Shown here piece by piece: positions 19 to 47,623 of a stretch of DNA of 52,781 bases; the stretch's first letter is position 1, and every line of letters begins with the position of its first letter. The notes under the pieces are model-generated. The model was not told the DNA's origin, did no database searches, and worked only from the letters and a program-made list of their open reading frames with translations. The stretch is from Candidatus Iainarchaeum sp. GTDB lineage: Archaea > Iainarchaeota > Iainarchaeia > Iainarchaeales > UBA10191. Location of the stretch: positions 1 through 52,781 of the forward strand of contig JAUSFL010000040.1 in the NCBI GenBank assembly GCA_030649735.1, given 5' to 3'. A program made the position numbers and the translations under genes.

Positions 19-3000
19 TTATTTAATGCATTCTGATTCTGCGCTTTTTTCATTGCCTTCAATTGATTGGATTATTGGGGTTGGATTCCACCAGAACTTC
101 TGCTCAAGCCCTGTTCCAGAAACGCAAACAGTCCTGTTCCTAACCATGTTTAAAATTTGCCTGACTGATTGAATGCTTTCATTGGATGCATTTCCTGCGC
201 CAGTCAATGGCACGTTTGCAGTGCTTTGAGTGGAGTTTGTTATGAGGCTTGCGCTGTCGTTCGCGACGTCAATGCTCATTGAGCTTGTCCTGCCTTGAGG
301 CGTGTAAAAAATGCTCTTCAAGTAAGTGCTTCCAAAATTCTGCTGAGTGTCAGGCCATTCAAGCCCATAGGCCAGCAAAGAGCTTCTTGCGCAGGCAGTG
401 TCAAACTTGTTGCCTACAGTGCTTTTGTCCGCAAACCCGTCCTTGAATGCCTCTAAAGTGTATCTTCCATAAAAGTCCTTGCAGTTCACTCCAACGCCCC
501 ACCAAGGATTGCTTTCCGGGCCTACGTAAGTGTCTGTTCCGCTGATTGCAAAATTGTAGGTTACGCAGGCTTCTCCAGTATTGTTTGTCATTTTCAAAAT
601 GACTGGAGTTGCATTGCTTGGCGAAAACACGAGCTTGCTCTTGCTGATTGACATTATCATTCCGCGAGTGTCACTGAAATTCAATTTCTTGAAGCTTTGC
701 TCTATTGAAGTCTCCAAGACTCCGCCGTTTTCAGTGAAAGGGCTCCATGAGGCTCCGCCAATTGCCTTGATTGAAGAGCCAACGTCGCTGGTGATTGAAA
801 CAGGATCGCTTGCTGTTGACTTGTAATTCAAGCCGTACATTGTCCTTCCATTCTCCGAATCCACGGTTCCAACAAGCCCGTCAAACGGCAGGTAATAGAA
901 TGGCGAGAGTGCAGGCTGGTTTGGAGTCTTGTTCAACAAAACATGCACTTTTGCGTCAGGCACTCCGTTAATGAACATTTGCCAGTCTTTGTTGTTGAAT
1001 TCAATGTCAATTGTTGTTTCATACAGTCCAGGGCCTGGCAGCATGTAGCCAATGTCTGGAGCTTCGCTGAACTTTGGCCCGAACTTGAATTTGCCGAAGT
1101 CCTTGAAAATTGTTCCTAATCCAGGCTCAGTGCCTGATTTGCCAGTGTACCAGTCCGCAGTGTCCACGAAAGCCACATTGGTGTAATAATCGTCAAAGTC
1201 TTTCTGCAAGTCTGGAGAATACCTGTCTTGAGTCAAGTAAGCGTTGAATTTGATGTTTTGCAAAAAGCTTTCCTTGTTCATTCCATCGCGGTAAATTACT
1301 CCACGGCCTGATTTTTCAGTTGCTTCAATGAATTCCTTCAGTCTTGAAGTCTTGTAAGGAGGGCAGTTAGTCAATAATTGAGACGGCCTTACATCAATTG
1401 CAGTGCTTACTGAATCGTCAGCGGCCATTGAATTGCAGTTTGATATTGTGCAAGACGCGAAAGTAGGCTCAATGACTGCATTGATTGCGAAAGTCGTGCT
1501 TGCCTGCAGGCTCTTGAACTCGCAGCCTATTGTTGTCTCGCTGCTCACGTCAAATGTTTTAATGCAAGGCGGCAGTGCTGCCTGCGTGCTGGAATTCACT
1601 ACAGTGACTGTCAATTTTATGTTAGCCAATGCCGGAGCGTTATTTTTTACAGTGACAATTATGTTTGCGTCAGCGCTTCCGTCGCTTTTGATTTGGTAGT
1701 CAGGGAACAGCCTTGAAATTCCAATGTTGTCTTCGCCAATAGTGTTTGTTTTTTCCTCAACATTTGCTGAAGGGCACACTAATGGATTGTCTGCAAGGAA
1801 GTCCTTGATTACCTTGATTTTCTTCAATGATTCAATGCTGAATTGCACTCCGTCGCAAAAGGCATAATTTGCTGTTCCTTCATCGCAGGCTGTCCTTCCA
1901 ACATCCTGCCAGCTCCAATCAAGCAATACTTTAGGAACTGCCTCTTCCCCGGTGTTTCCAAAAATTCCCGGAGGCATGAATGAAACGCAGGCCTTGTTAG
2001 GGTCGATTACTGTATCCTGCAATAATTGTTCAGGGCTTATTGCATTGAATTGCAGCATGAAGTATTGCGAAGCGTCTTTTGGATAGCCTGTCTTTTCATC
2101 CAATTCAATGTCTGTAGTGTCAATGTCAGCTTCTGTAGGCTGGTCAAAGAATGAAAGCAATCCGCCATCGCTTTCCTCCAATTCAATGTCATCAATGCTG
2201 TAAGTCTTGTCAGCATAATCATGCCTTTCCGCGTTCACTTTCAAAAGCTTGAAGTTTGTTCCAGTGAGCAATGGGTCTTGGTTTGTGAATTTCAATTCCA
2301 TGCTTTGGTCTTTTAGCTTGCTGTCAATCCTGTTGTCAGTCCTTGTCGAGCCAACTTGCTCTACTTTAATTGTAGCGTCAGTTGTGTCACTGCCAGTCAA
2401 TTTTTGAGGATACATTGCAAAACTGCTTATTTCCAAATCACTCATTGTGGTTGTGAATTCTATTGTGTCCTGGTTGTTAATGTTATACATTGTCCTTGCA
2501 ATGAAAACTCCCACTCCTTGGGATAATGGAGTGCTTCCAAGCAATCCGCCCAAAAATCCCGCACTTCCCGGAATCAGAACGCTTCCAAGCCCGCCAAGCA
2601 ATCCTCCAGAACTGCTGCTGCCGCTTCCACTTCCCAATAAGCTGCCGAGAACTCCTCCATTGCCTGCTGAACCGCTATTTTGTCCTCCACTGCCGCCTGT
2701 CTGCATTTGGGCAGCTGTGGCCGCCTTTGCCAATGTGAGCTTTGCGCTTGCGTTAGTAATGTTGTCTTTGGACGTTTCAATCAATCCAGTCACTGTCAGC
2801 GAATCCACTCCGGCAACGCTTGCGGTTGGATTGCTTGCGCCAAGCAGGCTTTTGCCCACGCCATAGCTTGTTGTTGCGGCAGTGAAGCCTGAATAAGTTC
2901 CAAGAGTTTTTTCCTTTGATTCAACAAGGGTTGTTTTTTCAGTTTCAAGAGTAGTTGCAACTTTTTTTAGATTGACGGCTGCTGTGGCATATGTTAATCC

Positions 3001-6000
3001 TGTTCCAACTGCCGCTGCGGTTGCCGCATCTGTTTGCTGCGTTTTTATTTTGCCTTGCTCAGTGCTTAATGATGTTTTGTAAGTTCCTGTTTGCGTGGGA
3101 ATTTTTTCTTCAATTGTCTTTGCTGCAGTGGTTCTGGCCCATGCTTCGCTTACGTTAGGGACTGCCAGTTTTGGACCGTAGGCAGTGACTCCGTCAAGCG
3201 CTGTTTTTTGGAAAACCAATGATGCTGTCTTTGCTGAAACTCCGGAAGTTGAGGCAGTGTCAATTGCGCCAATAGTTCCTGAAGTTGCAGTGAATCCAGT
3301 GTCAGTCAAGCTGAATTTTGTCTGAATTTCTGCTGCCTTTGCTTTAGCGACTGCAGCACAGGTGGCACCCATATATGCTTTTGATGCTGGATTATCGCAA
3401 TAGTTTGATAGAGTCGTGAAACAGTCTGATGTTTCATTAAGTTTTGCAATTGTCTGCTGAAGCAATGACTTGTCCAAAGCAGCCGCATCGCTTTTCGGGA
3501 AGCATGAGCCATTAATTGCAGAAACATTGGTTTTGTAAGTGTCTGTGGTATTTACTGCATCTGTCTGGGGAGTGATTGTTTCATTTCCTATTTTTGATGT
3601 TTTTCCGTCATCTGCAGCGACTATTTGGGTGGTTGTTGCCTTGTCATTGGCGACTGTGCTTCCAGTGCTTGAAGTTGTGACGTCAGTGCAGCCGCCGGTA
3701 AATCCTTCCCCGAATGTTTTTTCAGAATTTGCCAAAGTAAGGCAGGCTGCGGTCTTTTCGCCAGTAATTGCAGTGGAGATTGCAGTCATTGAAGTAATGC
3801 TTTGTTCCAATGCTGCATTGGTTTGCGCATTGCCCGCAATGTTTCCAACCCCGCTTCCGCTAAGCCCGTTTGTCAAAGCGCCCAAGAGCGCTGTCAAAAG
3901 CCCCCATTTCAGCCCGTCTGTTGCGGCATTGGCAAAGCTTGACATGTCTACCTTGAATGGAACGTCCTTGTCTTTGCAGTAATTTGTCAATTCGCTGTTG
4001 TCAAACCCGTCGTCAGGAACTTCAGGATCGTCAAAAACATTGAATTCGTACTTGTCCAATTGAATGCAAATGCTTGCATCCCAAACCCTGACCCTAATGG
4101 TTTTGTCTTGCTCAATCAATGAAGTGATTTCTGAAGGAGTTGGCTGTCCTTCAAGCTGTGCTTTCACTATGATTGCGTACTGTCCCGGGAAAGTGCTTTT
4201 GTTTGCTATCACTTGGATTGCCGGGCTTGTTCCGCCGTCAGCGATTATCAGCCCTGATGTTGGCGCTCCCACAAGGCTTAAAGTATTGTCCGGCAGGACT
4301 GAAAGGAACACTTTCACTTCCCCGCAGTCTTTCTTGTTTGATATTGTAAAGTCTGTCATTGATTCCGCAATTTTTTCGTCTTTTGTGATTGACAATAATT
4401 CTTTGCTGAATGAAATGCATTCTTTCAGGTTTGCAACATGCAGTTCTGTAGTGATTTCCTGGCTCATTGCCTGGTCTTTCTGGCCTTCAGTCTTGTTTTT
4501 TGCCTGAATTATTATTTTCGCGTTTGCGACTCCATCGACTCCGCCGCTTGGCGTGAAAGAAAGGATTGCGTCATAGCTTTTTTCTGCCTCAAACCTTGAA
4601 ACTAATTTCTTGAAATATCCTGCCCTTAATTCTGCTGCAGCGATTGCTCCAGAGCTTTTGCTTTCATAAATTCCCAAAAGGAATGTTCCAATTTCGTTTC
4701 CATTCCATTCGACTTTTGCCTGCAAATCGCTTATTGCAATCGGCTGGCCTTTGCTTGAGCAGTTGTTTTGTATTTTGAACTCAAAGCTTATTGCCTTTCC
4801 TTCAGTGCTGTCAGTCCAGTTTTTTGGCGTGACTTGCAGGCAGTCTTCTGCGTCAAGCTCTGCTCCGAAGCCGATTGTTGCATTGACTGGAACCTTGAAA
4901 ACCCAGGATTGCCCGTAATTGCCAGCGGTTATTGTTAAAGTTCCCTTGACTTGCTGCCTGTCAGTCAATGCCAGCGCTTCTTGGGTCAAGAATCCAGTGA
5001 AAGTGATGTTTGCCGAGCCATTAGGGTTTAGTTCTGCGCCTTGCTGTTCTGCAAGCGCGTTGTTCATTGCAGTATCGTCCAAAAAATTGCCTGAAGTTCC
5101 TTCATTGGAGTACTCTAGTTTTTCAATCTTTAAAGGGAATGATGCGATGTTTTTCACTTGGACTGTAGTGCTTTTTTGGCTTTCAGTGCTTGCGTTGATT
5201 GCAAGAGCGATTGTTGCCGGGCTTATTTCCAAAAGCTGGTCGTTTGCCTTGAGCTTTAATTCTTTATTGTTATAATCCGGCTTTGATATGGTGACTGTGA
5301 TTTCTTCGCCAGGCAGTAGTGATGGAATCCTTACTGTGGCTTTTCCAAGCCTTGTTGTCTTTCCAAGCACTAGAGTGTTTTTGAAGCGGTCTTTGACTGT
5401 AATGATTGCGCCTTCCACTTCCAAATTGGTTTTAGCGTCAGTAACTGAAACTTCAATGTTGCTTTCAATTCCTGCAGGAAGCATTGTTGGCTGAATGTCT
5501 ACCTTGAACTCGTTTTGTGCTGAAACAACAATTGTCAAATCCTTTTGGAATACAATATTGTACAGTCCTGGAGGATTGCTGCTTGACGCTATTTTGAAGC
5601 TGATTATTCCATTGCTGCTTGTTTGCGGCGTAAAGTCTATTTCTCCAGAAATTACAGCGCCTTTTTCAAAGCGGTTTTGGTTTTGCGAATTAGTGATGTC
5701 CTGGTCTGGAAGCTGGCTTTTTCCTGCAGTGCCTGTGATTTCCCTGCCTGAAGGCAATATTATGCTGTAGCTCTTGAACAGCAGTGACTCGTCCTCGTTT
5801 TTAATGCGCAATTGCGCGTCATTGTGCACTGTTGTTTTGGAATTGTTTGAAATATTGAAAATCAACTTGTAATTGTTAAGGATTTTTGCGTTATAGCTTT
5901 CATCAACCGCTTCTCCCAGTCCTCTTCTTCCATTCAAGTCTTCAATGATGTTTGCTGAAAAGCAGAATTCCGAATCGCACAAGGTAGTTATTCCAACCTG

Positions 6001-8394
6001 GTATAATTGCTTTGCTGGAGGCTCGAAGTAAAAGTCTTCTGAAGGCACTTGCTCCATTCTTGGATAATAGATTGTTTCGCCGTCATTTGAAACTCCAGTA
6101 AGCCAGTAGTAGACTCCGGCCTGCTCTCCGACTGCCGCAGTGCTTTTGACAGCGAATGAGACTTCGGCTTCATAAACTCCTTCGCTTAATGAAGCTACTG
6201 GAATGTTTGCCCATTTTGCGTCTCCTTCAGTCACTGTTGCGGCATCGTTTCCAAACCCGTTGGCTTTGTTGATTGAAGTTGCCTTGAGAATGTTATTGCT
6301 TAAAGGCATGTTGACTCTTTTCAAGACCATTGAGTCTTTTTCCATTATTCCATACCCGAACTCGCCTTTTCCAGTGTGAACGTGCATTATGCTTTGAGAG
6401 TAAGTTTTTCCTGCGGGAACCAAAATCCTGAATTTTCCAACATACTCTTGCCCGGGGCTTACTGCAGGAGTTGCCTTGTCTGAATCAGTGAGTCCTGAAA
6501 GCGACTTGTCTTTCTTGAAAAGACCCAAGAATTCCATTTTGAAATCGTTTGCAAGAATTTTCGGCTCTAAAGTGACATTGAATGCTGTGACTTTGTTTGC
6601 GATTATCGGCTTTGAAATTGTAGTGTATGCCGAGTAGTCTTTCTCGCCAGGGTTTAACTGCTGCCTTGAGATTTTCACGAAAACTTCCTTGTCTGCCTTT
6701 GCAAACCTGCTTGTTGCAGGAAGAACCCAGTTTCCGTCACTGTCTGTCAGACTGCTTCCAATTTCAGAATTGTCAAACGCGTCAATTAATGTCACGCGCG
6801 CGTTCGCGACTGCAAAGCCTTCAGTGTCTTTCACGTTCACTTTCACTGAGCCATTAGGCACAATGAGCGAAACATTAAGGTAGAATGCTGAAGCATCCCT
6901 CAGCTCAAACCTTTGGCTTTCGCTTTTTCCAGAAGCGCCTTGCTTTACTGCAACCGCATAATAGTAAGTTGCGGGCTTAACGTTTGGAAAGTGCGCTATT
7001 CCATTAATGTCGCTTAATTGCTCGGCGTATGGAGTGAGGAATCCTTCCTTATCTTCGCCTGTTCCATAATAAAGCGCGACTCTGGCAGCTTTAACCCCTT
7101 TTGCTGTTTCTGCATCAAGCACCTTGACTTTTAATTCTCCAGAATTGCTTGCCGAAAACTTTTCCAAAACCAGGGATTCTGTCCTGTCGCCTTGCTGTTG
7201 AATGTCAATTTCCCTTTCAGAAACCAAGTAGTCCGGATGGTCTGCGCTTATAGTGTATTTTCCAGTCGCGTTAAGATTGAATGAAACCATTCCGTTAGCG
7301 TCTGTTGTTTCATCGTCAATTCTTGCGTTTCCTTTCTTTACTGTGACTTTCGCGTTCGCGATTTTCTTGCCTGTGTTGTCTTTTTCAACAACCTGCACTT
7401 TGAGCCTTACGCTGATGTCTTTTTCCAGAGTGATTGTTTTCTGCACTGTGTCTCCAGGCAGTGTTGCGAACTCGTCAGTTGCCTTAGAGCCGTACTCGTC
7501 TGTAGGGCTTGTCCTTAAAGTGTATTTTGAGGCAGGCTGTTTGAATTCTGCAATTCCTGAAGCATTGGTCACTTGCTCTGCAATCGGACCTAATTCAAAC
7601 TCAAAAAGCTTTACGCTGATTCCTGCAAGTGGCTTGTCGTCAAAGACAACCCTTGCCCTGATTGTTGAAAGCTCTGATTCAAGCTCTTCAAGCTGTACAG
7701 TTTGGGAGTCTGAAGTAAATGCAATGCTTTGCTTTGGGGCAAATCCTTCGACTTCAATGCTTGCGACAAGGCTTCCGCAATTGCTTGGGGCCTTTACTGA
7801 AGCACTTCCATTGCTTGTCGTTATTTGCGCTGGTTCTGGAATTGCTCCAGGGTTAGTGCATGAGAAAGAATAATTCGCGCTTTTCAAAATTGCCCTGTTG
7901 AATGAGTCTTTAATGTAAATTGTTTTTTGCAGGCTGCCTCTTGCAAGCTCAACAAGCACTATTGAAAGCTTTTTTGGCTCATTGGCAGTGAACTTGTCTG
8001 TTTTAGTCTCAAACCCGTTTTTTGTCACAGTATAATTAATTACTGAGTCTTTTTCGAAATCCTGCCTTTCAGTGATTCCCTGGCTGTTTGTTACAATAGT
8101 CAGGTTTGCGGGCATTAGCTTGATGCTTGCGTTTGCAATTGGGTCTCCGTCTACGGTTTCAACCTGCAGCACAACGCCCACAGTGGGCTTTGCGAGCAAT
8201 GGAGTGAGCAAAAACCATCCGCCCAAAATCAATGCCAGGATTATTACTGCCAGGACAATTGCAAAAGTAGGAACGATTTTGTCGATTGGGTCGACAATTT
8301 TATAGATTGGGATTACTTTGTCAACATGGTCAAGGAATGCATAGTATTTTTCTTCCATTCCGAAGTAAAGGTCTTTTAGAAAGTCGCCAGCCAT
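19..8394 (-). CDS. Giant membrane-anchored surface protein A (2791 aa): carboxypeptidase-regulatory/prealbumin-like beta repeats, Cys-stapled modules, Gly-rich hydrophobic insert
   Basis: 8.4 kb ORF; N-terminal TM (TFAIVLAVIILALILGGWFLL); repeated 'V.V.D..G..I.NA.V.l....TD.NG...F' units; motifs shared with the ORFs at 8902-16620 and 18293-26635. Confidence 0.85.
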   Translation of the reverse strand: MAGDFLKDLYFGMEEKYYAFLDHVDKVIPIYKIVDPIDKIVPTFAIVLAVIILALILGGWFLLTPLLAKPTVGVVLQVETVDGDPIANASIKLMPANLTIVTNSQGITERQDFEKDSVINYTVTKNGFETKTDKFTANEPKKLSIVLVELARGSLQKTIYIKDSFNRAILKSANYSFSCTNPGAIPEPAQITTSNGSASVKAPSNCGSLVASIEVEGFAPKQSIAFTSDSQTVQLEELESELSTIRARVVFDDKPLAGISVKLFEFELGPIAEQVTNASGIAEFKQPASKYTLRTSPTDEYGSKATDEFATLPGDTVQKTITLEKDISVRLKVQVVEKDNTGKKIANAKVTVKKGNARIDDETTDANGMVSFNLNATGKYTISADHPDYLVSEREIDIQQQGDRTESLVLEKFSASNSGELKVKVLDAETAKGVKAARVALYYGTGEDKEGFLTPYAEQLSDINGIAHFPNVKPATYYYAVAVKQGASGKSESQRFELRDASAFYLNVSLIVPNGSVKVNVKDTEGFAVANARVTLIDAFDNSEIGSSLTDSDGNWVLPATSRFAKADKEVFVKISRQQLNPGEKDYSAYTTISKPIIANKVTAFNVTLEPKILANDFKMEFLGLFKKDKSLSGLTDSDKATPAVSPGQEYVGKFRILVPAGKTYSQSIMHVHTGKGEFGYGIMEKDSMVLKRVNMPLSNNILKATSINKANGFGNDAATVTEGDAKWANIPVASLSEGVYEAEVSFAVKSTAAVGEQAGVYYWLTGVSNDGETIYYPRMEQVPSEDFYFEPPAKQLYQVGITTLCDSEFCFSANIIEDLNGRRGLGEAVDESYNAKILNNYKLIFNISNNSKTTVHNDAQLRIKNEDESLLFKSYSIILPSGREITGTAGKSQLPDQDITNSQNQNRFEKGAVISGEIDFTPQTSSNGIISFKIASSSNPPGLYNIVFQKDLTIVVSAQNEFKVDIQPTMLPAGIESNIEVSVTDAKTNLEVEGAIITVKDRFKNTLVLGKTTRLGKATVRIPSLLPGEEITVTISKPDYNNKELKLKANDQLLEISPATIALAINASTESQKSTTVQVKNIASFPLKIEKLEYSNEGTSGNFLDDTAMNNALAEQQGAELNPNGSANITFTGFLTQEALALTDRQQVKGTLTITAGNYGQSWVFKVPVNATIGFGAELDAEDCLQVTPKNWTDSTEGKAISFEFKIQNNCSSKGQPIAISDLQAKVEWNGNEIGTFLLGIYESKSSGAIAAAELRAGYFKKLVSRFEAEKSYDAILSFTPSGGVDGVANAKIIIQAKNKTEGQKDQAMSQEITTELHVANLKECISFSKELLSITKDEKIAESMTDFTISNKKDCGEVKVFLSVLPDNTLSLVGAPTSGLIIADGGTSPAIQVIANKSTFPGQYAIIVKAQLEGQPTPSEITSLIEQDKTIRVRVWDASICIQLDKYEFNVFDDPEVPDDGFDNSELTNYCKDKDVPFKVDMSSFANAATDGLKWGLLTALLGALTNGLSGSGVGNIAGNAQTNAALEQSITSMTAISTAITGEKTAACLTLANSEKTFGEGFTGGCTDVTTSSTGSTVANDKATTTQIVAADDGKTSKIGNETITPQTDAVNTTDTYKTNVSAINGSCFPKSDAAALDKSLLQQTIAKLNETSDCFTTLSNYCDNPASKAYMGATCAAVAKAKAAEIQTKFSLTDTGFTATSGTIGAIDTASTSGVSAKTASLVFQKTALDGVTAYGPKLAVPNVSEAWARTTAAKTIEEKIPTQTGTYKTSLSTEQGKIKTQQTDAATAAAVGTGLTYATAAVNLKKVATTLETEKTTLVESKEKTLGTYSGFTAATTSYGVGKSLLGASNPTASVAGVDSLTVTGLIETSKDNITNASAKLTLAKAATAAQMQTGGSGGQNSGSAGNGGVLGSLLGSGSGSSSSGGLLGGLGSVLIPGSAGFLGGLLGSTPLSQGVGVFIARTMYNINNQDTIEFTTTMSDLEISSFAMYPQKLTGSDTTDATIKVEQVGSTRTDNRIDSKLKDQSMELKFTNQDPLLTGTNFKLLKVNAERHDYADKTYSIDDIELEESDGGLLSFFDQPTEADIDTTDIELDEKTGYPKDASQYFMLQFNAISPEQLLQDTVIDPNKACVSFMPPGIFGNTGEEAVPKVLLDWSWQDVGRTACDEGTANYAFCDGVQFSIESLKKIKVIKDFLADNPLVCPSANVEEKTNTIGEDNIGISRLFPDYQIKSDGSADANIIVTVKNNAPALANIKLTVTVVNSSTQAALPPCIKTFDVSSETTIGCEFKSLQASTTFAINAVIEPTFASCTISNCNSMAADDSVSTAIDVRPSQLLTNCPPYKTSRLKEFIEATEKSGRGVIYRDGMNKESFLQNIKFNAYLTQDRYSPDLQKDFDDYYTNVAFVDTADWYTGKSGTEPGLGTIFKDFGKFKFGPKFSEAPDIGYMLPGPGLYETTIDIEFNNKDWQMFINGVPDAKVHVLLNKTPNQPALSPFYYLPFDGLVGTVDSENGRTMYGLNYKSTASDPVSITSDVGSSIKAIGGASWSPFTENGGVLETSIEQSFKKLNFSDTRGMIMSISKSKLVFSPSNATPVILKMTNNTGEACVTYNFAISGTDTYVGPESNPWWGVGVNCKDFYGRYTLEAFKDGFADKSTVGNKFDTACARSSLLAYGLEWPDTQQNFGSTYLKSIFYTPQGRTSSMSIDVANDSASLITNSTQSTANVPLTGAGNASNESIQSVRQILNMVRNRTVCVSGTGLEQKFWWNPTPIIQSIEGNEKSAESECIK

Positions 8395-38200: not shown

Positions 38201-38213
38201 TTGATTACGCGCT

Positions 38214-38296: not shown

Positions 38297-38491
38297 ATGG
38301 GCTCTTTTGGAAAGTTCTTGAATGAGGAAAGCGCTGAAAGCGAGTGGAGTTCCTTGTACATGCTTTTGGTTTTCATTATTGCCGCCTTGCTTTTGATAGC
38401 TTTAATCAAGCCGATGTTTCGAAAATCGCAGGAAGTGGTTACAAAAACCCCGAATTCCCAGACAGCAACTGCGACTGCAGCGGTGAAGTGA
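38297..38491 (+). CDS. Small Flp-like/class III pilin-like protein (64 aa)
   Basis: MGSFGKFLNEESA|ESEWSSLYMLLVFIIAALLLIALI; ATG 38297 preferred because the ORF-track extension runs through the terminator. Confidence 0.65.
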   Translation: MGSFGKFLNEESAESEWSSLYMLLVFIIAALLLIALIKPMFRKSQEVVTKTPNSQTATATAAVK

Positions 38492-38495
38492 TTTA

Positions 38496-39083: not shown

Positions 39084-39133
39084 AAAAAAGCATTAATAAC
39101 CAGTACTGCATTATTTTGAAAAGGCGTTTTTGA

Positions 39134-39781
39134 ATGCTTGGCTTCACTTTAAGCAAGTTCAGCTTGCTGATTTTGGTTATTTCAATTTTTGGAATAGTGA
39201 GCTTTTTCACTTTGCACTTGACTGACAGCCTTAAAGTCAAGGCATTGAATGACCTTTTGTCGCACAATTCATCCATTGCCTCGGAAATGATGTCTTCCCC
39301 GTCATACTGCGACATTTTGCTTGTCAAAATTCCCGAAACAGTAACTCTTTCAGCGAGCGAAATGTATTATATAATGCGCATTTCCTCAATTTCAGCTCCG
39401 CCAATTGGCGAAAAGCCGGCAAAAAATTACCTGATTTTTTCAGCGGCCGACAGGAAAAACACTGACGCAGTCATTGCCTCAAGCAGTTCTCCCACAACTG
39501 CTGAAATCATTTTTTACAAGCGAAATTCCGAAGGCCCTTTGGAAGGGACTTACTCAAGAGTAACTGGCGATAATGCAGGAATACTGCTTGACCCTTCAGC
39601 GCGTTCCACAGAGCTTTCCGACGCATTTTATTTAGTGAAGGAAATCAACAATGATGGAAAAACCCAACTTTATGTTTTTCCATGCGCCATTTCTGGCGGG
39701 CTGCAAAGCATTTGCGATAACGTGAAAACCGCTGTTGGCGCCGCAGTTCACGGGCAGGGAAAAAAATTCAAGTGTGGTTGA
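39134..39781 (+). CDS. Pilin-cluster membrane-anchored protein (minor pilin-like)
   Basis: MLG|FTLSKFSLLILVISIFGIVSFF single N-terminal TM inside the pilin operon; in-frame TGA directly upstream of the ATG. Confidence 0.6.
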   Translation: MLGFTLSKFSLLILVISIFGIVSFFTLHLTDSLKVKALNDLLSHNSSIASEMMSSPSYCDILLVKIPETVTLSASEMYYIMRISSISAPPIGEKPAKNYLIFSAADRKNTDAVIASSSSPTTAEIIFYKRNSEGPLEGTYSRVTGDNAGILLDPSARSTELSDAFYLVKEINNDGKTQLYVFPCAISGGLQSICDNVKTAVGAAVHGQGKKFKCG

Positions 39782-40351
39782 ATGAGGAATAAAGCATTCA
39801 TTGGGCCAATTGGCGACGATCTTCCGTCATTGATTCCAATAGTTTTTGCATTGACGATTTTTTTCGCGTCATTCAATGCCGCGCTCTCAACTTTTGACAG
39901 CAAGAACAATTCTTTCGCTGACGACTTGGATGCCTTAAAGGTTGCCCGAATAATGCGCTCCAATGGCTACATTGTCAACAAGGAAAATTTTGACCAATTA
40001 TGCGGCCTGGTTGAGGTAAGGTCTTTGAAGTTTGTTGCAGGCCTTGCAGAATTCAACACCACTCCAGAAGACAGCCTTGACCCTTTAAAGCCTTACAATT
40101 TCACTTTCTTTGAGCCTTCAGGATTGATGAAGCCAATTGACCAATTGTTTTACGGCAATGCTTCAGGAAATTTTTACTGCACTAATCTGAAAGACCCTTC
40201 AACATTTGATTCCGGCGTGCTTCAATACAAGAACGCAATAGTCCGGACTTATCCGGTAATTTTGGAGAAAGACCGCGGCACTGACGCGCAAGGCGGCAAA
40301 TTAGGGATTATTGCTGCCCCGATGCAATTGGTGGTGGTTGCTTGGCGTTGA
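39782..40351 (+). CDS. Minor pilin-like protein
   Basis: MRNKA|FIGPIGDDLPSLIPIVFALTIFF; C-terminal LVVVAW beta strand; abuts the upstream gene. Confidence 0.7.
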   Translation: MRNKAFIGPIGDDLPSLIPIVFALTIFFASFNAALSTFDSKNNSFADDLDALKVARIMRSNGYIVNKENFDQLCGLVEVRSLKFVAGLAEFNTTPEDSLDPLKPYNFTFFEPSGLMKPIDQLFYGNASGNFYCTNLKDPSTFDSGVLQYKNAIVRTYPVILEKDRGTDAQGGKLGIIAAPMQLVVVAWR

Positions 40352-41154
40352 ATTCTAAAGCGCAGGCTGCCGTGACTGACGCCTTGCTTTTGCTCTTGGT
40401 TGTCGGGATTTTGAGCACTTCCCTGGTTTTGTTTTCAATAAATTATGGAAAGACAGTCCAAAAGTACATTACAGACCAGTATGCCGTTGATTTTGAGACA
40501 ACAGCCTTGAAGACAATGCTTTACAGCAGCATTCCGCGAGACATGCCTTCAGCATTAAGCCCAAACCCGACTGTTTACAATTCAGACCAGGTTGATTACT
40601 TGCTTGCCGTAGTCAAAGAAGACTACTTGGATGATGCTGCATTGAATGACAATACAAAGAATGTTTTGAAGAATGCGTCAAAGATTGCGTTCAAGCCATT
40701 GAACCGCTCTTACGATTACATGTTCTTGATTCAGACAATGGAAACTCCAACCAGGTTTGTTTTCCTTTACATCAACGCGTCAAATCCTGACGGGACAGGA
40801 AGGGAAGAGTATTACTGCAATGCAAAGTCTGTTGAAAACGTCCAGTCTTTCTTGGAAAGCGTTGGCGCCTTCAATCCGGTTGTTTCAGGAATAAAGCTTT
40901 CCAAAATAAACCCTTCAACAAAAGATGCTGACACAGTATCCGCGGTTGCAGAGCTTGCAATGTGGACTGGCGCTTCCTTCAAGAATAATTCTGGAAACTT
41001 GGTTCTTGAAAGCGTGAAAATTTTGCCGGCAAGCATTGACCTTAACACTGTGAAATTTGATGCTTCAAATATTTGGGGATGCGCGCCTGAAAACTTTCCA
41101 GCCGAAGCCGGCTGCCCCGGGGTTTTAGTCTGCAAGCAAATAACGACTAATTAG
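40342..41154 (+). CDS. Minor pilin-like protein
   Basis: (MAL)NSKA|QAAVTDALLLLLVVGILS; the start may be TTG 40348. Confidence 0.78.
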   Translation: MALNSKAQAAVTDALLLLLVVGILSTSLVLFSINYGKTVQKYITDQYAVDFETTALKTMLYSSIPRDMPSALSPNPTVYNSDQVDYLLAVVKEDYLDDAALNDNTKNVLKNASKIAFKPLNRSYDYMFLIQTMETPTRFVFLYINASNPDGTGREEYYCNAKSVENVQSFLESVGAFNPVVSGIKLSKINPSTKDADTVSAVAELAMWTGASFKNNSGNLVLESVKILPASIDLNTVKFDASNIWGCAPENFPAEAGCPGVLVCKQITTN

Positions 41155-41183: not shown

Positions 41184-41900
41184 TCACGTTTTCTTGGCTT
41201 TAAATTCGGTGTTGCATTTTGGGCATGTGTAATTTATTTTGTCCCCTGCGTCTTTGGCCTGCTTTGCGCAGTGATTGCAGAATGCTGTTCCGCAATTGGG
41301 GCAGAAAATCAAATGGTCTGTTTTTGCCTTGCAGTTCGAGCAAGTGTTCTTGTCAGTTTCAACATCCTTGATGATGTTTTCTGAATTGTCGTTTTCAGGA
41401 AGACTGTCCAGCGAGTTTTTCAAGTCGTCTCCTTGAAGGTTCAAGTCTTCAAGCGAAAGCAGGCCATTTTTGTCATTCTCTTTTTCAAGGTCGAAGTCTT
41501 CAGTGTTCAATAATTCTGCAACGCTGGCTTTTTTCGCTTCTTCGCTTTTTTTCCCGGGCTCTGCAATTGCTGTTTTGCCTTGCTGCGGGCCTGTTTTTGA
41601 AGGCCTGAAGCGCCCGTGCTGCGGGCTTTCGGCAATTGTTTCCTTTTTGACTTGCGTGTAAATTTTTTCTGCAACTTCGTCAAATTCTTCATTTCTTGGA
41701 AAGCGCCTGAATTTTTCCCTGAATTTCTGCAATTCCTTGCTTGCAACTTCCTGGTTTTTTCTCTTCATCAATGCCTGCTCCCTATCAAGCATTCTGCCCT
41801 CGCTTTCAGGCTGGCCTTGATCTTGCGGAACGCCCTGCCCGTTCCTGTAAAACCTGCGCAGCCTTCGCGGAACTTCTTCAGGGCTTTCTTCATCACTCAA
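41184..41900 (-). CDS. Charged low-complexity protein with a C-terminal 8-Cys double zinc finger
   Basis: CSNC-x9-CPNC-x4-CNHC-x14-CPKC at the C-terminus. Confidence 0.75.
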   Translation of the reverse strand: MSDEESPEEVPRRLRRFYRNGQGVPQDQGQPESEGRMLDREQALMKRKNQEVASKELQKFREKFRRFPRNEEFDEVAEKIYTQVKKETIAESPQHGRFRPSKTGPQQGKTAIAEPGKKSEEAKKASVAELLNTEDFDLEKENDKNGLLSLEDLNLQGDDLKNSLDSLPENDNSENIIKDVETDKNTCSNCKAKTDHLIFCPNCGTAFCNHCAKQAKDAGDKINYTCPKCNTEFKAKKT

Positions 41901-42367
41901 GGATTTGCACTTCCTTTCTTCAGGAGAGTTTCGCGGATTCTTTCAACCTGCTCTGGAGTCAGGTTTTTGTTAAGTATGAATTGCTTGTCTGAAAGCAATT
42001 GCCGCATGCTTTTTTCAGCTACAATTTGCTCTGCGGCTTTTTCTTTAGGGATTGCCACAGTGCCTATTTTTGCGGAAAAGAAGTCTCTCCTTGCTGAAAG
42101 CATGATTAATGTTATGACCAGCGTTATTGTGAGAATTATCGGGAAAAGGCTTTGGAACCCGAAAATCACTGCAAGCACTGCCCAAAGCACTGAAAACACC
42201 CCGCCAAAAATAATGCTCCATCCAATGCGGTAGTTTTCGTCAAGAATCCTGATTTTTGGCCAGCCAGTGCGCAAAAGCAGATACCCAAGGCTGTAAGAGC
42301 CGATGATGAAGTAAAATACAACAAGCAGTTCCACGCCGCTAAAGCCTAAAAAATCGAAGCCTTGCAT
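41897..42367 (-). CDS. Membrane protein (156 aa, about 3 TM) with soluble C-terminal tail
   Basis: Hydrophobic N-terminal two-thirds; 4-bp overlap with the downstream zinc-finger gene. Confidence 0.72.
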   Translation of the reverse strand: MQGFDFLGFSGVELLVVFYFIIGSYSLGYLLLRTGWPKIRILDENYRIGWSIIFGGVFSVLWAVLAVIFGFQSLFPIILTITLVITLIMLSARRDFFSAKIGTVAIPKEKAAEQIVAEKSMRQLLSDKQFILNKNLTPEQVERIRETLLKKGSANP

Positions 42368-42415
42368 TACATCTAGTACTTAAATATTTATACCAGTTAA
42401 TAAATTATTCTCTAT

Positions 42416-42991
42416 ATGGTTGATTTTGCACAGACGCTTGTTGAATTTTTTGTTTTGCTGATAAATTTGCTTTTGCTCGCAATTCCCTTGGCTGCGATTG
42501 TTTTCGCTTTCGGCAGGCTTGAAGGCAGGCTTGAGAAAAAATTCAAGCTCTCTTGGATCAAGGCTTCAGCGCTTTCAGCTTTTGCTGCAGTATTCCTTGC
42601 AATCCTGATTGTTTACCTCTTGCCTTTTTCAGGGGCAATGCAGTTCTCATCCAATGACAATCTTCCGACAGGGATTACAACGCAAGTTGTTGAAGACGCT
42701 AGCGGGCAATTGGTTGAACAGCAAATTCCCGGCAGTTCATTGCTTGATTCTTTGGGAGTTATGCTCGTTACTTTCTTGAGGCTTGTTTTCATAAGCGCTG
42801 TATTGACAGTGCTTTTGCTTCCGTTGATTTTGCTGGCGTCAGGGGTTTTCTCAAAATTTGCGAAAAAAAAGTCGGCAAACATTCCGGCATTCTATCTTTC
42901 TTCTTTTGCGGGGCTTTTCATGATTGCGGTAATAATTCTTGCATTGCCTTGGATTCCTGCAGGAATCGCTTACTTCATTTTCTTTTCGTAA
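42416..42991 (+). CDS. Membrane protein (191 aa, about 4 TM)
   Basis: Four hydrophobic segments; TTTATA about 24 bp upstream of the ATG. Confidence 0.72.
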   Translation: MVDFAQTLVEFFVLLINLLLLAIPLAAIVFAFGRLEGRLEKKFKLSWIKASALSAFAAVFLAILIVYLLPFSGAMQFSSNDNLPTGITTQVVEDASGQLVEQQIPGSSLLDSLGVMLVTFLRLVFISAVLTVLLLPLILLASGVFSKFAKKKSANIPAFYLSSFAGLFMIAVIILALPWIPAGIAYFIFFS

Positions 42992-43075: not shown

Positions 43076-46000
43076 GTGTTTTTTTTGCTTGAAAAGCTCA
43101 ACGCAGTTCTCTTGATTTTAATCCTTTTTGCCCCGCAATTAAGCCTTGCGGCAACAGACGCTTCAGGCAATTCAGGCCCTAACGCAAATGCCGGAACTCC
43201 AGACATTACGCTTCCTTCAAATGCTGCCAATTACCAGCCGACAATTCCGGACAATTCACTGAATTCCAATCCCTCATCCTGCCGCTTGACTGCATTGACT
43301 GACTCTGAAGCCCAGAAATTATTGGACCTTAGAAAAAAAGTCAACACTTTTGACGAATTAAATTCCGGAACTCCTGCAAACACTCAAAGAAAAACATTGG
43401 AAAACAACAAGGCATTGATTCCAGACGCTCAAGGCGATTTGGCCTTAAAGCAGGAATTCCCGAACAAGGAAATAAAGCTTGACGAAATCGCTTTCATCCT
43501 TAACTTGAAAGGAAAAGGCGCTTTTGCCTTCGGCGTTGTCTTGAATGACACTTTAAGGGTTGGAACTTGCAAGGGAGACAAAACAAATCCTGGCGCCTGT
43601 CCTGTCCGCGACAAGGGCTTGACTTTCAAGAATGACGGCACTGGAATTGTCACGGACTTCAAAAGCGCGTTTGATTTCTCCAGCGCTTTTGGAGACACAA
43701 AGCAAAAGCCAATCAGCCAAAGCGCTTTGGACACAATGGCAATTGAGGCTGAATTGCAAAACCCAAATCCTGTTGAAGCAAAGGAAGGGGACTTGAGCGC
43801 TTTAAAGGATTCCAGCATTCAAGTCAAGACTGCAAGCAGGATTCCTGGAAATGTCTTGAACAACAGGGTTGAAGCCCAAAACTTCACTGCCTCAATGGGA
43901 ACAACCTGCCAGAATGGCGCTTGCGTAATCAACATTTACTCATTGTTTGACAAGTACTTTAACTCAATGTTTTCGGCAAACCTTGTGATTTCAAACCTTG
44001 CTCCGACCTTGATTGGAAAAACAGCTTACTTGTTCGGCACTGCAGAAAGCAGGGGCTGGCAGTTTCCATTCCAGCAAAAAATTTCAAGCTGGACAAAGGG
44101 AAATGTAAGCACTTATCTAAAGCCGACTGAAGTGAGAAAGGGAACAATGCAAAGGTTTGATTTCATCCAAAACAAGTATGATTTTGGCGGTTTAGGGACC
44201 ATTGACTTGTACATTGACCAGAAAAAAGGCACTTTGCTTTCTGACGGCGCTTTTGCTGGATGGAAGGAAAAGTTTTTCCAGGAAGGCGCGCAAAAAATCA
44301 CGACTTATGAAGCGCGGAGAAAATTTGTCGACCAAGCAATGGATGTTTACAAGTATTCCCAAGTCAACCAGCAAATGAAACAGTTTGTAATGGATGAGCT
44401 TGCTGCTGGAAGGCTGACTAAGATTGAAGCCGGCAGGAAAATGGCGGAAATTGCGGCAGACTGGGATAGTGCAACGCACTTGAACCTTAAGGACTGGTTC
44501 ATGCAGAATGACAGGCATGGGCTGGTTGACGCTTATGTGAAGCCAATGGTTGGCGGCGCAGCAGTTGACAATCCAATCAAAATAAGCGCTTTTAACACGC
44601 CAACGTATGTTTTTGACGACTTCATTACTAATGGAAGATTTGGGGCAAAAGTTGAAGCAGATGCAGCCGGAGCTTTAAAACTTTATAAAATAAATCCTGT
44701 CGGAAACCCAATTGCCACAGGAGTTCCTTTCGACACTTTGGAAGCAAGCGTTCGCGCAGGCCAGTACGCCAACCAATTGGCCGCAGTGCGCTTGAATAAC
44801 GGAAGCTTTGTTTCAGCCACGGCAGACAATCTGGAATACATCAGAACCAATACTGCAGGAACAGTTGACGTTTTTGCGGCAAAAATCACTGATGCAGGCA
44901 TTTTGACTCCTGATGAAATGGCCGGCAGAGTAATGGACTTGCTGCCTTCAAGGCTTGAGTCAGCAAACAGGAACATGGGAAAATTAAAGGACATTTTAAG
45001 AGAGCACGGATGGGCTTCAAGAAAGTATTTTTCATTATTGGACAAGCAAATGCTTGAAGAGCAGCAATTGCTGAAAAGCTATTTGGGCTCGATTAAGGGC
45101 GCTGCAAAATGGACTGCCTATCCTTTCATGTACTCTTGGGCGAAGAAGGGAGTGAACTTTCAGGATGTTTCAATCTACCGCTTGCCCCAAACATGGAGTG
45201 AAATCACTTTCACTCAAGGAACAGACAAGCTTTACAATGACGCTTTCATTGATTTCTTCTCAAATGCGGGAAGCGACCAAGGCGACATTTTCACACAAAT
45301 GCTTAACGTGCTTCCTTGGAAAAGCCTTGTGCTTGATCCCCTTGCTGAAAAAACCCCTTACGCTAATATTTGGAACACTATTTCAGGGAAAGGATTTCGG
45401 TCAAAGTCTGAAAATCTTGCGTTCTTTGTTTACGGCGCGCAGAAAAAATGCTCGACTTGCACTGCAGGAATCCAGTCCAAGGATGGAAAGGAAGGCTCTT
45501 TGACTTTTACAACAAACGAAAACTTGAATTCTTTCCTTTTTGAATATCCGTCTTCAACTGCCGCGAAAAAATCAGGCCAGACATTGATTGCTTATGCGCA
45601 TCACACAAACATGCAGGGAAAAGACTCTTCAGGAAAAGGGAATGAAATCAACCCTGTCAATGCAATTGCAGACAAGAAAACCTGCACTGACGCAGTGAAA
45701 GAATCAGGGCTTGGCTTTGGGTATGACATTGGCGCGCAAGGCGCTGCCGCAGTGCTTGGGGCCGGAGAATCACTTGGCTATTACTTGTTCGGGCCTGTTG
45801 GAATGATTGGTTCTGCAATACAGCAGGTTTACTTTGCCCCGCAATTCAACGGCTGCATTGACGACAGGGAAGGATATTTCATCCATTATTTTGTTCCTGC
45901 TGATTCTTCAAAAAAAGCGGCAAGCAGTTCTGCAATTGCCGGGGCTGAAAAGGCGTCAAGCATTATTGAGTCAGGCCAAAAGACAGTGACTGACTTGCTC

Positions 46001-47623
46001 ACTAATGTTGCGGGGCAATCGACTGCAAAAGCCGCTGATGCAAAAGCGCAAGGCCTTTCGCCTGAAGAATTGCAGCAAAAGCAAGGCGGCCAAGGCGTTG
46101 TAAAGAATGCCGCGGACCAAATTCAGGCAAGCACTGACAAAATAGTGAATCAAATCCAAGACAAGGATATTTTAGAGGCTTTGTTCACGACTCAAGGCAG
46201 TGCTTCAGGCCAGGCTTTCTTTAACGCGCTCTTTTGGTTCTGGATTGAAGGAACAGACTTGTCGCCTACAAAATACAGGACTGACGGCGTGACAAACTAT
46301 GTTGACTCTAAAGGAAACACTTTGAAATCCGACTATAAGGAAGGCAAGATTTCATTGAATGGAGAAGTCTTGGTGAACGAGGACGGCTCAAGGCCTGAAT
46401 TGCAAAGAATGGAAGGATTGAATTTGGCAATTCCTGCAAAGGAAGTTCCGCAAAGGCTTACTTCAATGAGAATGTCAGGCGACAGGACTTTAATGTTTGA
46501 AATGCTAGCAAATGGAGAAATGTACATTAGCGATCCGCAAGTTCGGGGCTGCATTGAAACTGCGGTCATGGAGCAGACTGGAGTAAGGCTTTACTCTGAC
46601 AATTTGGCCCAAACTTTCGGGTTTGTGACTTCAATAGAAACTGAAAACTCGACAGTAACCCCAAAAGCCACTGGCATTATTGTTGAAGGCCCATTAAGGT
46701 TTATTGCCGAAGGCGCTGGCTCTAAAGCGCAAATTTTTGGGAACAGGGACGTTAATGTAATTGACGAGCGTGGATTAATTGTCCGGGCCGGATTGCTCAG
46801 CAGCATTGTGTTCGAGAATGGAGTAATGGTTTACAATACTCAAACAAAAGAGCTTATCATTTGGCTAAAGCATCATAAAATGGCAACTCCGTCATTCAGT
46901 GACGTGAAAGGATTGAAGGCTACTTTGACAACAGACAAGAATCCATTAACTAATTGCGACGAGCCTGCAATCGACCTGTCTTTGATGGCTAATAAAGAGT
47001 CAGGCCTAAGCACTGAAAAAGTGGAGAACTTCAATGCTGGCACGAAATTGAACGGCCCTTTCAAGGTTTTTGAAACAGACAAGGCAATTTTCACGTTTTA
47101 TGCAGAGCCTCCTGACTGCCAGCCGCGCTTTAGAATGGTTGATAAGGCAACAGGCAATGTTACTGACGAGGCAATAGTGCCTGGAAGCTTGAAGCAAACT
47201 CCCACTGGAATACAATTCCAGACAATTGACAAGGCAGGGAACATAAAAAACCAGACAATGGATTTTTCAGCGCCTGACGGAAAGCCAATCCTAACATATA
47301 ATGGAGTTCCTCAAAACTTGCTTTCAGCGCAGGGAAAGAACGGCTCTTTCTACTTTAATCCAGACACTGGACAGTATTATTCAGAAAACGGCCAGTTCAT
47401 TCCATTAAACAACCAATTCAAGCAGGGAATTTCCCCACGCGTCAATCCTGACGGAACAGTCTCTGGAGTTCCGGGACAAAACATTTTCGCCCCGCAAATT
47501 GGCAGCGGAAGCAATAGTAACGGATTATTGAACCTGCCTTCAATGCCTCAAGAACTCTTGATTTTTTTGCTGTTTGTTTCAGCAATCACTGCCTCAATAG
47601 TCTTGATTAGAATTAGGAAATAA
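43076..47623 (+). CDS. Large secreted surface protein (about 1515 aa) with C-terminal motif-TM-basic sorting signal
   Basis: Sec-type signal peptide (..VLLILILFAPQLSLAA); C-terminus LLNLPSMPQE-LLIFLLFVSAITASIVLI-RIRK; the start may be TTG 43085 after AGGTG. Confidence 0.85.
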   Translation: MFFLLEKLNAVLLILILFAPQLSLAATDASGNSGPNANAGTPDITLPSNAANYQPTIPDNSLNSNPSSCRLTALTDSEAQKLLDLRKKVNTFDELNSGTPANTQRKTLENNKALIPDAQGDLALKQEFPNKEIKLDEIAFILNLKGKGAFAFGVVLNDTLRVGTCKGDKTNPGACPVRDKGLTFKNDGTGIVTDFKSAFDFSSAFGDTKQKPISQSALDTMAIEAELQNPNPVEAKEGDLSALKDSSIQVKTASRIPGNVLNNRVEAQNFTASMGTTCQNGACVINIYSLFDKYFNSMFSANLVISNLAPTLIGKTAYLFGTAESRGWQFPFQQKISSWTKGNVSTYLKPTEVRKGTMQRFDFIQNKYDFGGLGTIDLYIDQKKGTLLSDGAFAGWKEKFFQEGAQKITTYEARRKFVDQAMDVYKYSQVNQQMKQFVMDELAAGRLTKIEAGRKMAEIAADWDSATHLNLKDWFMQNDRHGLVDAYVKPMVGGAAVDNPIKISAFNTPTYVFDDFITNGRFGAKVEADAAGALKLYKINPVGNPIATGVPFDTLEASVRAGQYANQLAAVRLNNGSFVSATADNLEYIRTNTAGTVDVFAAKITDAGILTPDEMAGRVMDLLPSRLESANRNMGKLKDILREHGWASRKYFSLLDKQMLEEQQLLKSYLGSIKGAAKWTAYPFMYSWAKKGVNFQDVSIYRLPQTWSEITFTQGTDKLYNDAFIDFFSNAGSDQGDIFTQMLNVLPWKSLVLDPLAEKTPYANIWNTISGKGFRSKSENLAFFVYGAQKKCSTCTAGIQSKDGKEGSLTFTTNENLNSFLFEYPSSTAAKKSGQTLIAYAHHTNMQGKDSSGKGNEINPVNAIADKKTCTDAVKESGLGFGYDIGAQGAAAVLGAGESLGYYLFGPVGMIGSAIQQVYFAPQFNGCIDDREGYFIHYFVPADSSKKAASSSAIAGAEKASSIIESGQKTVTDLLTNVAGQSTAKAADAKAQGLSPEELQQKQGGQGVVKNAADQIQASTDKIVNQIQDKDILEALFTTQGSASGQAFFNALFWFWIEGTDLSPTKYRTDGVTNYVDSKGNTLKSDYKEGKISLNGEVLVNEDGSRPELQRMEGLNLAIPAKEVPQRLTSMRMSGDRTLMFEMLANGEMYISDPQVRGCIETAVMEQTGVRLYSDNLAQTFGFVTSIETENSTVTPKATGIIVEGPLRFIAEGAGSKAQIFGNRDVNVIDERGLIVRAGLLSSIVFENGVMVYNTQTKELIIWLKHHKMATPSFSDVKGLKATLTTDKNPLTNCDEPAIDLSLMANKESGLSTEKVENFNAGTKLNGPFKVFETDKAIFTFYAEPPDCQPRFRMVDKATGNVTDEAIVPGSLKQTPTGIQFQTIDKAGNIKNQTMDFSAPDGKPILTYNGVPQNLLSAQGKNGSFYFNPDTGQYYSENGQFIPLNNQFKQGISPRVNPDGTVSGVPGQNIFAPQIGSGSNSNGLLNLPSMPQELLIFLLFVSAITASIVLIRIRK

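Follow-up and report, generated by a model that had tools for sequence, protein, structure and literature searches.

We analyzed a 52,781-nt stretch of archaeal DNA (the window), the entire contig JAUSFL010000040.1 of Candidatus Iainarchaeum sp. (assembly GCA_030649735.1), which holds a locus of giant surface proteins and type IV pilus-like genes that spans about 50 kb and makes up about 5% of the 1.28-Mb genome. The assembly has 51 contigs, is 92.7% complete, and contains an archaeal SSU rRNA gene; its closest named relatives are Candidatus Iainarchaeum (Diapherotrites). A public sequencing run that may represent the source sample carries the label groundwater metagenome. Open reading frames (ORFs) of the window were called and translated, the proteins were scanned against Pfam and NCBIfam, and the genes listed by an earlier reading of the same DNA, the first-pass annotation, were found to exist at their places (Table 1). 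Order-wide searches covered 41 genomes, the window's own included; genomes, contigs, and loci are cited below as G, C, and L plus a number. Gene order was compared in detail over 60 to 70 kb around the giant arrays of six genomes from six families, including the complete AR10, and all 27 window proteins were compared with each of these six loci. Related genomes are non-independent samples in all linkage counts that follow.

Table 1. Features of the window, in order of position (aa, amino acids; strands are given relative to the forward strand of the contig)
Feature	Position	Strand	Length (aa)	Remarks
Giant A	19..8394	-	2791	Motif and anchor, aa 1-70; immunoglobulin (Ig)-like stalk to about aa 1520
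Giant A, distal part				Linker rich in Gly/Ala/Thr, then conserved Cys-rich C-terminal region, aa 1940-2791
Gene between A and B	8407..8877	-	156	Four hydrophobic segments; not pilin-like
Giant B	8902..16620	-	2572	Tyr-rich low-complexity tract, aa 1293-1459 (window 12244-12744)
pil494	16777..18261	-	494	Probable ATG start at 18252; class III-like signal
Giant C	18293..26635	-	2780	Tyr/Asn/Gln tract, aa 1132-1238 (window 22922-23242)
Giant C, glucosaminidase domain	18317-18664			C-terminus
Giant C, hydrophobic segment	about 20066-20227			From aa 2137 (aa 2137-2155)
Small archaeosortase/exosortase-like gene	26701..27261	-	186	Cys92, Arg134, His155
Polytopic membrane protein	27301..28245	+	314	Weakly conserved; match in G004 only
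ATPase	28330..30606	+	758	FlaI/TadA/GspE-type; PF00437, 68.5 bits (cut-off, 24.9)
Subtilase S8	30663..34694	-	1343	PF00082, 189.9 bits; Cys-rich N-terminal region, dockerin-like end
Platform-like protein	34783..37155	+	790	Eight hydrophobic segments; N-terminal half T2SSF-like
Small pilin-like genes	37162..41154	+	151, 177, 195, 215, 189, 270	Six genes, tightly packed, plus a 96-aa membrane ORF
Zn-ribbon, membrane protein, membrane protein	41184..42991	-, -, +	238, 156, 191
Secreted protein	43076..47623	+	1515	Signal-like N-terminus; sorting-type tail (window 47522-47620)
PAC2-family gene, two T2SSF genes, end of second pilus-type ATPase	48711..51658	-	T2SSF, 305 and 247	Last 151 codons of the second ATPase

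The co-oriented giants A, B, and C had been described as paralogs, and pairwise BLASTP searches bore this out (A and B, E = 3e-81 over 1396 columns; B and C, E = 1e-20 over 1244 columns; A and C, E = 1e-9 over 568 columns). Their number had been put at three, which proved too low: a fourth, A-like giant lies on contig C35 (10512-17639), and a further paralog of 1604 aa lies on contig C31. Because the fourth giant starts 170 bases from the end of C35, that contig very probably adjoins the left end of the window. Each of A, B, and C has a single N-terminal hydrophobic anchor after about 40 residues, and the giants have a common start of about 44 residues, approximately GLKxxYxxLEDKYYxxLDxLDxxGIPVYKxxDPIDxxxPSF, that precedes it. 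Residues Y10, E14, D22, P29, and P42 of this motif were invariant in an alignment of 20 giants from seven genomes. A profile of the motif matched 1139 representative proteins among 1.84 billion at E ≤ 0.001 (858 at 1e-10); among the 150 matches listed, all 150 began within the first 54 residues, and the proteins were up to 3251 aa long. The short proteins that matched are probably fragments. The profile superseded a word-based search with residues 1-110 of A, which had returned five proteins. Two other large ORFs of this genome, at C41:6211-15600 (3130 aa) and C18:1-7716 (at least 2572 aa), are without the motif and were unrelated to the giants in the searches run.

Beyond the anchor, Pfam recognized Ig-like domains (CarboxypepD_reg, bMG3, SpaA, and Big_1) in A, B, and C, which are also rich in cysteines; databases name the giants as carboxypeptidase regulatory-like domain proteins and nothing else. 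From the Ig-like domains, the many cysteines, and the murein hydrolase domain of C described below, we infer that the bulk of each giant lies outside the cell and that the N-terminal motif is cytoplasmic. The distal regions differ between the paralogs, as had been proposed. A conserved region of about 850 aa, rich in Cys and Trp, is common to giant A and the fourth giant (18 homologs, 27 to 53% identity). In a fold search, a structural model of this C-terminal region of A (pLDDT 78.1) matched nothing beyond beta-sandwich accessory domains, over about 120 columns and at a TM of about 0.1. Low-complexity tracts rich in Tyr, Asn, Gln, Ser, and Gly lie in the middle of B and C, and Tyr-rich tracts recur at the matching relative position in their orthologs (B, five of six relatives' loci; C, two of six), with the sequence itself unconserved. 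Near aa 2040-2350, in its own copy and in four of six orthologs, giant C has a hydrophobic segment, weaker than the hairpin of the fourth giant described below, and its orthologs align only to about aa 2170-2240 (query positions 2173-2238), that is, near or soon after this segment. The first-pass annotation had thus named payload types that exist, but its assignment of one payload to each paralog does not hold: the Tyr/Asn/Gln tracts occur in both B and C, and the hydrophobic segment and the glycosidase, placed on separate paralogs, are both on C.

The fourth giant has a very hydrophobic hairpin of 40 to 70 aa in mid-protein (about aa 1480-1610), between stalk and head, which is kept in its own copy and in five of five orthologs (L018, L019, L027-L028, and L033-L034 are among the ortholog loci). 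Conserved Cys motifs lie on either side of the hairpin (CAWGE before, DCxD after) in this genome's copy and in four of the five orthologs; in G004 they are not evident. This may possibly be a disulfide-closed membrane hairpin.

Among the giants lies one pilin-like gene, which we call pil494. Such a gene had been noticed between the giants, and it is indeed there, but the B-C interval is its only place; the gene that separates A from B has no pilin features. The N-terminus of pil494 reads MDSKG/FTLFTALV, and its orthologs begin [KR][GA]-F-[TN]-L-F-T-A-L-V. The family has 51 members, the query included, all named "hypothetical protein" and without a Pfam domain, with the source labels Diapherotrites, Iainarchaeum, plain "archaeon," and one Micrarchaeota. 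A model built from 33 sequences (pLDDT 85.4, pTM 0.75) has a long N-terminal helix (residues 3-75) and a globular part, which has invariant cysteines; a fold search with it against solved structures gave no match at E ≤ 0.001. We found pil494 in 38 of the 41 genomes, as a single match in each except G020 and G022 (one gene with two partial matches each). In 32 of 32 relatives with a listed giant on the same contig, the gene is on the giant's strand and less than 2.2 kb upstream of its start (five relatives whose pil494 contig carries no listed giant are excluded from this count). Class III-type proteins rely on a prepilin peptidase, an assembly ATPase, and a platform in type IV systems. Since a protein of this type is encoded within the giants' gene string, its position there is, in our reading of the gene order, the strongest argument that the giants and the pilus-type genes would work together.

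The pilus-type genes begin with the ATPase, whose best solved relatives are GspE of A. fulgidus (2OAP, E = 2.6e-31), then CpaF and FlaI. Its N-terminus is extended by about 294 residues, for which no solved structure gave a match, and its orthologs are 55 to 81% identical over the full length across the order. In five relatives the ortholog lies in a frame of about 1225 to 1360 aa (G011, C13:115348-119172; G028, C13; G038, C19; G037, C37; G034, C14). The alignment is interrupted there at query residue 487-493, a pattern suggesting that some 500 aa of intein-like sequence have been inserted shortly downstream of the Walker A region. The platform-like protein had been read as a double T2SSF protein. 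One weak match to this family remains (PF00482, 17.8 bits, below the cut-off of 25.2), in an N-terminal half that resembles the two T2SSF genes at 49542-51199, which pass the cut-off; the C-terminal half has no Pfam match.

Behind the platform stands the cluster of small pilin-like genes, which is present as described except that its seven members are six pilin-like genes and a 96-aa ORF with two hydrophobic segments. Each of the six has its own ortholog in the relatives, in unchanged order. An N-terminal hydrophobic helix is found in all six proteins and in pil494. On visual inspection, the helix is preceded by [KR][GA] and then Q or F in pil494 and in five of the small proteins (named by length, pil151, pil177, pil195, pil189, and pil270), and pil215 carries GFTL but lacks the basic residue. 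None of the pilin models scored above its cut-off for these proteins. The genome encodes prepilin peptidase (PF01478, A24) outside the locus, on contigs C50 and C9 (55.4 and 54.0 bits). The Zn-ribbon protein and the 156-aa membrane protein that follow the pilin-like genes are conserved in the relatives' loci.

Next, we considered how far the giants and the pilus-type genes occur together. Matches to residues 1-1300 of B were found in 39 of the 41 genomes of the order, representing 32 families, mostly as tandem arrays with intact frames of 2.2 to 3.4 thousand aa (kaa). Across the phylum, 140 of 151 genomes had matches to the giants at E ≤ 1e-10, including 55 of 55 high-quality ones; the matches were weaker in other orders of the class and absent from both genomes of one family. 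Gene order was the same in all six loci compared: fourth giant, A, B, pil494, C, and sortase, then a gap of variable length, then ATPase, platform, six pilin-like genes, and Zn-ribbon. The 1.5-kaa protein was next in line wherever the fetched stretch extended far enough (G018, G025, and G004), and the PAC2 gene and the two T2SSF genes followed it in G025 and G004 only. The best match of each giant in these loci was its own ortholog, and gene order is still kept across the six families, where the giants are 22 to 37% identical. The ATPase ortholog and a listed giant were on one contig in 22 genomes, the window's own included, and in 20 of the 22 they were 0.8 to 28 kb apart. The other two, G005 and G036, belong to one genus and have distances of 455 and 363 kb; all parts are present in both though dispersed, and G005 has them at three sites, one with the giants and pil494, one with the platform and the 1.5-kaa protein, and one with the ATPase. 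The conserved synteny of giants with ATPase, platform, pilins, and sortase that the first-pass annotation had put up for testing was therefore found, and with it a functional linkage of giants and pilus module is well supported on genomic grounds.

The sortase gene, which had been called an archaeosortase, passed the TIGR04178 signature (31.2 bits; cut-off, 23). It scored below the cut-off of every named subfamily in NCBIfam (ArtA-F, pacearchaeosortase, and XrtX), for example 25.6 against 125 for ArtD, 23.6 against 80 for pacearchaeosortase, and 27.6 against 170 for XrtX. Its Cys92, Arg134, and His155, which we take to be the catalytic residues, stand in the expected sequence contexts. The candidate substrate, by co-location, is the 1515-aa protein, whose tail consists of LPSMPQE, then a hydrophobic segment, and basic residues at the end. 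The form (L/F)N(L/I)P(S/L)xP(E/Q/T) plus about 20 hydrophobic residues and a basic end is found in 10 of 11 orthologs of this protein, and no other ORF of this genome carries such an LPSLPE-type tail. The protein had no sequence match in Pfam, NCBIfam, or the PDB (0 hits) and no usable match in the ESM Atlas. Three other ORFs (C16:35246-40063, C40:22945-27462, and C27:36687-37577) end in VPExxP, a hydrophobic segment, and a basic tail, and a second archaeosortase-like gene lies at C49:88389-88640. Given these three ORFs and the second gene, the genome likely has two sortase/tail pairs, and the VPExxP ORFs and the C49 gene may form the second.

Giant C ends in a Glucosaminidase domain (PF01832) that scores 33.2 bits here and 40.9 bits in the order-wide search (cut-off, 30.2); the wall hydrolase noted on this giant is therefore above the cut-off, and we regard the C-terminus as a predicted peptidoglycan hydrolase. 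As a general payload of the system it does not stand, since PF01832 matched in only 6 of the 41 genomes, at seven places of which at least four are in the locus, and passed the Pfam cut-off in only 2 of the 41. The giant C frame of G021 carries Glucosaminidase (45.1 bits). In G018 giant C ends in Amidase_2 (E = 7.8e-29) with a weak Glucosaminidase match in addition, and a separate ORF between sortase and ATPase has another PF01832 match. In G019 a PF01832 match falls in an ORF of 1016 aa between sortase and C, which carries Amidase_3 (E = 8e-34) and PKD domains; the match in G037 is on a short, unplaced contig. Peptidoglycan hydrolases thus lie on or beside giant C in four lineages, and three murein-cleaving families occur at one locus. 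The C-terminal 900 aa of five other giant C proteins had no Pfam domain above the cut-off (sub-threshold TPR_21 in G019). The archaeon's own murein was considered as the target and rejected, because Mur_ligase_M was not found in this genome, which is 92.7% complete; judged from the gene content, the target is most simply foreign, bacterial murein.

Taken together, we read the locus, with a probability of roughly 60%, as encoding a coupled surface apparatus through which these archaea would contact surfaces or other cells, in some lineages bacteria. One module would be the co-directional string of sortase, giant C, pil494, B, A, and, on the neighboring contig, the fourth giant, in which every giant combines the motif of about 44 residues, the membrane anchor, a long Ig-like stalk, and a paralog-specific distal region. 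The other module would be the type IV pilus-like operon of ATPase, platform, and six pilin-like genes, followed by the Zn-ribbon, the small membrane proteins, and the 1.5-kaa protein. A filament would be built from the small pilin-like proteins by the ATPase, the platform, and the genome's prepilin peptidase, and pil494, processed like the small pilins, would couple the giants to this filament or to its base. The giants would extend tens of nanometers from the cell, with distal regions that bind a surface or a partner cell; giant C, or in its place a neighboring gene, would in some lineages carry peptidoglycan hydrolases to the bacterial wall, and the sortase would anchor the 1.5-kaa protein as an envelope layer. 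The topology, the filament assembly, the linking role of pil494, the pairing of sortase and substrate, and the bacterial target are parts that we infer. The heteromeric stalk or conduit that the first-pass annotation had proposed would be a hypothetical form of such an apparatus. A bolder version would make the four giants, pil494, and the motor one new organelle, a heteromeric assembly of stalk, hairpin, and head, organized by the motif, that attaches to and breaches bacteria by means of the hairpins and murein hydrolases; we consider this unlikely. If it were true, this DPANN lineage would be a parasite or predator of bacteria and not of archaea.

Several points weigh against a coupled contact apparatus. 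The giants, considered as pilins and rejected as such, have no class III signal and so are not ordinary pilus subunits. The hairpin of the fourth giant would probably insert in the membrane of the cell itself, as expected of an arch or cage more than of a free fibril, and the generic beta-sandwich matches of the model of A's C-terminal region leave a role in binding or catalysis putative. The hydrolase is sporadic, and most of the C ends examined have no recognized domain. Furthermore, linkage is not obligatory, with modules 85 to 455 kb apart in G005 and G036, and the gap between sortase and ATPase, which accommodates unrelated genes, differs in length among the loci (about 1 to 28 kb). The second archaeosortase-like gene on C49 makes the assignment of the 1515-aa protein to the sortase of this locus a presumed one. 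Finally, production of the proteins and their mutual contact are predictions from the genes.

Some of these points would suit a structural envelope, in which the four giants form a canopy or cage that replaces or supports the S-layer and the pilus operon is merely a neighbor. The set is fixed at four, with a single ortholog of each, and is near-universal in the order, which is housekeeping-like and unlike fast-turnover adhesins; the Cys-flanked hairpin would anchor the fourth giant twice in the membrane, and the modules are separable in G005 and G036. A pure wall role does not explain why pil494 is embedded between C and B, with 32 of 32 assessable relatives agreeing, and the wall hydrolases of giant C suggest a target outside the cell, in another organism. 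Archaeal S-layer subunits are much smaller and usually number one or two, which also weighs against the giants in this role. The classical envelope features belong to the 1.5-kaa protein, which is a better candidate for the envelope layer because it has a signal peptide and a sorted C-terminal anchor, opposite to the N-terminal anchor of the giants. We therefore think an envelope made of the giants doubtful. The locus could also be a cluster of independent surface genes brought together by chance or regulation with no common function: module spacing varies, and unrelated insertions occur (the subtilase here, a 2523-aa ORF in G027, and hydrolase ORFs in G018 and G019). Such a cluster is very improbable to us, since order is kept across six families despite giants at 22 to 37% identity, and linkage within 28 kb, found in 20 of 22 genomes, would arise by chance in about 6% of cases in a genome of about 1 Mb (simple arithmetic, with genomes that are not independent).

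The end of giant C could also be read as that of a polymorphic-toxin-like protein of contact-dependent antagonism, with a conserved stalk and an exchangeable effector directed against competing bacteria and not at attachment to a host. The loss of conservation beyond about aa 2170-2240, near the hydrophobic segment, fits this, as do the variable ends with Glucosaminidase, Amidase_2, or nothing recognizable. An immunity gene would be a weak test, since a murein hydrolase should need none in an archaeon in which no Mur ligase was detected. However, A, B, and the fourth giant (D) have no exchangeable ends (the C-terminal region of A is conserved in its 18 homologs), and most giant C ends carry no known toxin domain, so that we hold antagonism to be quite improbable.

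The coupled contact apparatus that we favor resembles archaeal type IV pilus-like (Tad/FlaI-type) systems (surveyed by Makarova, Koonin and Albers 2016, PMC4858521) in its GspE/FlaI/CpaF-type ATPase, putative polytopic platform, small proteins with putative class III-like N-termini, and distant prepilin peptidase. The same survey (PMC4858521) gives the proposal that large proteins encoded in archaeal pilus loci act as adhesins, and type IV pilus-like loci of DPANN archaea with unrecognizable pilins and "specific surface proteins" appear in another (Makarova et al. 2019, PMC6393860). Unlike the systems described there, the locus has an ATPase with some 294 additional N-terminal residues, four N-anchored paralogs of 2.2 to 3.4 kaa with a motif of their own, and pil494 encoded among the giants, outside the pilin operon. 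The nearest parallel in arrangement is in Omnitrophota, whose giant genes follow a gspE/gspF-like cluster and numerous class III signal genes and have been linked to the degradation of cell walls (West-Roberts et al. 2023, 10.1101/2023.11.21.568195). Common to both are giant surface proteins beside a gspE/gspF-like cluster, small genes with class III or class III-like signals, ultrasmall cells, and wall-degrading domains. The Omnitrophota giants are bacterial, single, mostly longer than 10 kaa and up to 30 kaa or more, and have many enzymatic domains, whereas Iainarchaeum has a set of four archaeal paralogs, each about 2.5 kaa long, that consist mostly of stalk and have hydrolases in only some lineages; the two are likened by arrangement and not by sequence. 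Because of this parallel, the locus suggests that ultrasmall cells of both domains may have converged on giants encoded beside pilus-type machines.

Like the giants, bacterial fibrillar adhesins such as SiiE and LapA are anchored in a membrane or wall and carry a distinct distal region on a long stalk of Ig-like repeats. The giants differ from them in that their anchor is an N-terminal transmembrane segment after a conserved motif, their adhesin role is putative, and they form a fixed group of four orthologs and not a variable repertoire. The SPEARE proteins of Nanohaloarchaeota, reportedly described by Hamm and colleagues in 2019, are said to be very large DPANN surface proteins with a proposed action on the host; Pfam found none of the protease and restriction-endonuclease domains to which they owe their name in A, B, or C. 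In archaeosortase systems of the ArtA type with PGF-CTERM, the enzyme has the exo/archaeosortase signature with Cys, Arg, and His, and the substrate has a tripartite C-terminal tail. The sortase signature with these residues and the neighboring secreted protein with a tripartite tail are alike here, but the enzyme has only 186 aa and lies below all named subfamily cut-offs, and the LPSLPE-like tail is not a named signal and has one carrier ORF per genome.

Within the open literature searched (the founding genome papers and supplements lie outside this scope), we found no account of the locus or the giants in Iainarchaeota/Diapherotrites; an S-layer survey labels Iainarchaeota on a figure of the archaeal tree (10.1101/2024.05.28.596244). 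In that literature the four N-anchored giants with their motif, the embedded pilin-like family, the small sortase with a new tail, and the order-wide conservation are undescribed. The locus is the largest conserved block of surface genes in these small genomes. Iainarchaeota are widespread in groundwater and sediments and may need a partner cell; to our knowledge no member has been cultured, and host dependence is an assumption carried over from other DPANN lineages. The motif profile, the single-copy pilin-like marker gene, the sortase/tail pair, and the murein hydrolases that hint at bacteria are handles on this lifestyle question, which becomes testable by proteomics, imaging, and enzyme assays.

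The remaining genes of the window are less constant. The subtilase, which the first-pass annotation had counted as a component of the locus, is a real gene inserted on the opposite strand between ATPase and platform, but none of the six relatives' loci has a match, and we rejected it as a part of the machine in favor of a lineage-specific insertion; a protein with a similar N-terminus is encoded at C46:11386-15447. The 156-aa gene between A and B likewise had no match in the six loci, and on this comparison both it and the subtilase are local additions. In G027 an extra ORF of 2523 aa (L030:656-8224) with a Pro/Thr-rich tract and without the giants' N-terminal motif lies between C and the sortase.

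At the right end of the window, the order of PAC2, T2SSF, and second pilus-type ATPase genes is also found in G004 and G025, where this ATPase is full length (frames of 502 and 582 aa, respectively). Here its N-terminal 360 residues are on contig C3 (8388-9491) and its C-terminal 151 aa in the window (region 51203-52781). The start of a tyrosine integrase gene, which continues past the contig end, lies 20 bases from the fragment, so that the second ATPase gene looks to have been split by an integrase-bearing insertion; about 18 of its codons seem to be present in both pieces.

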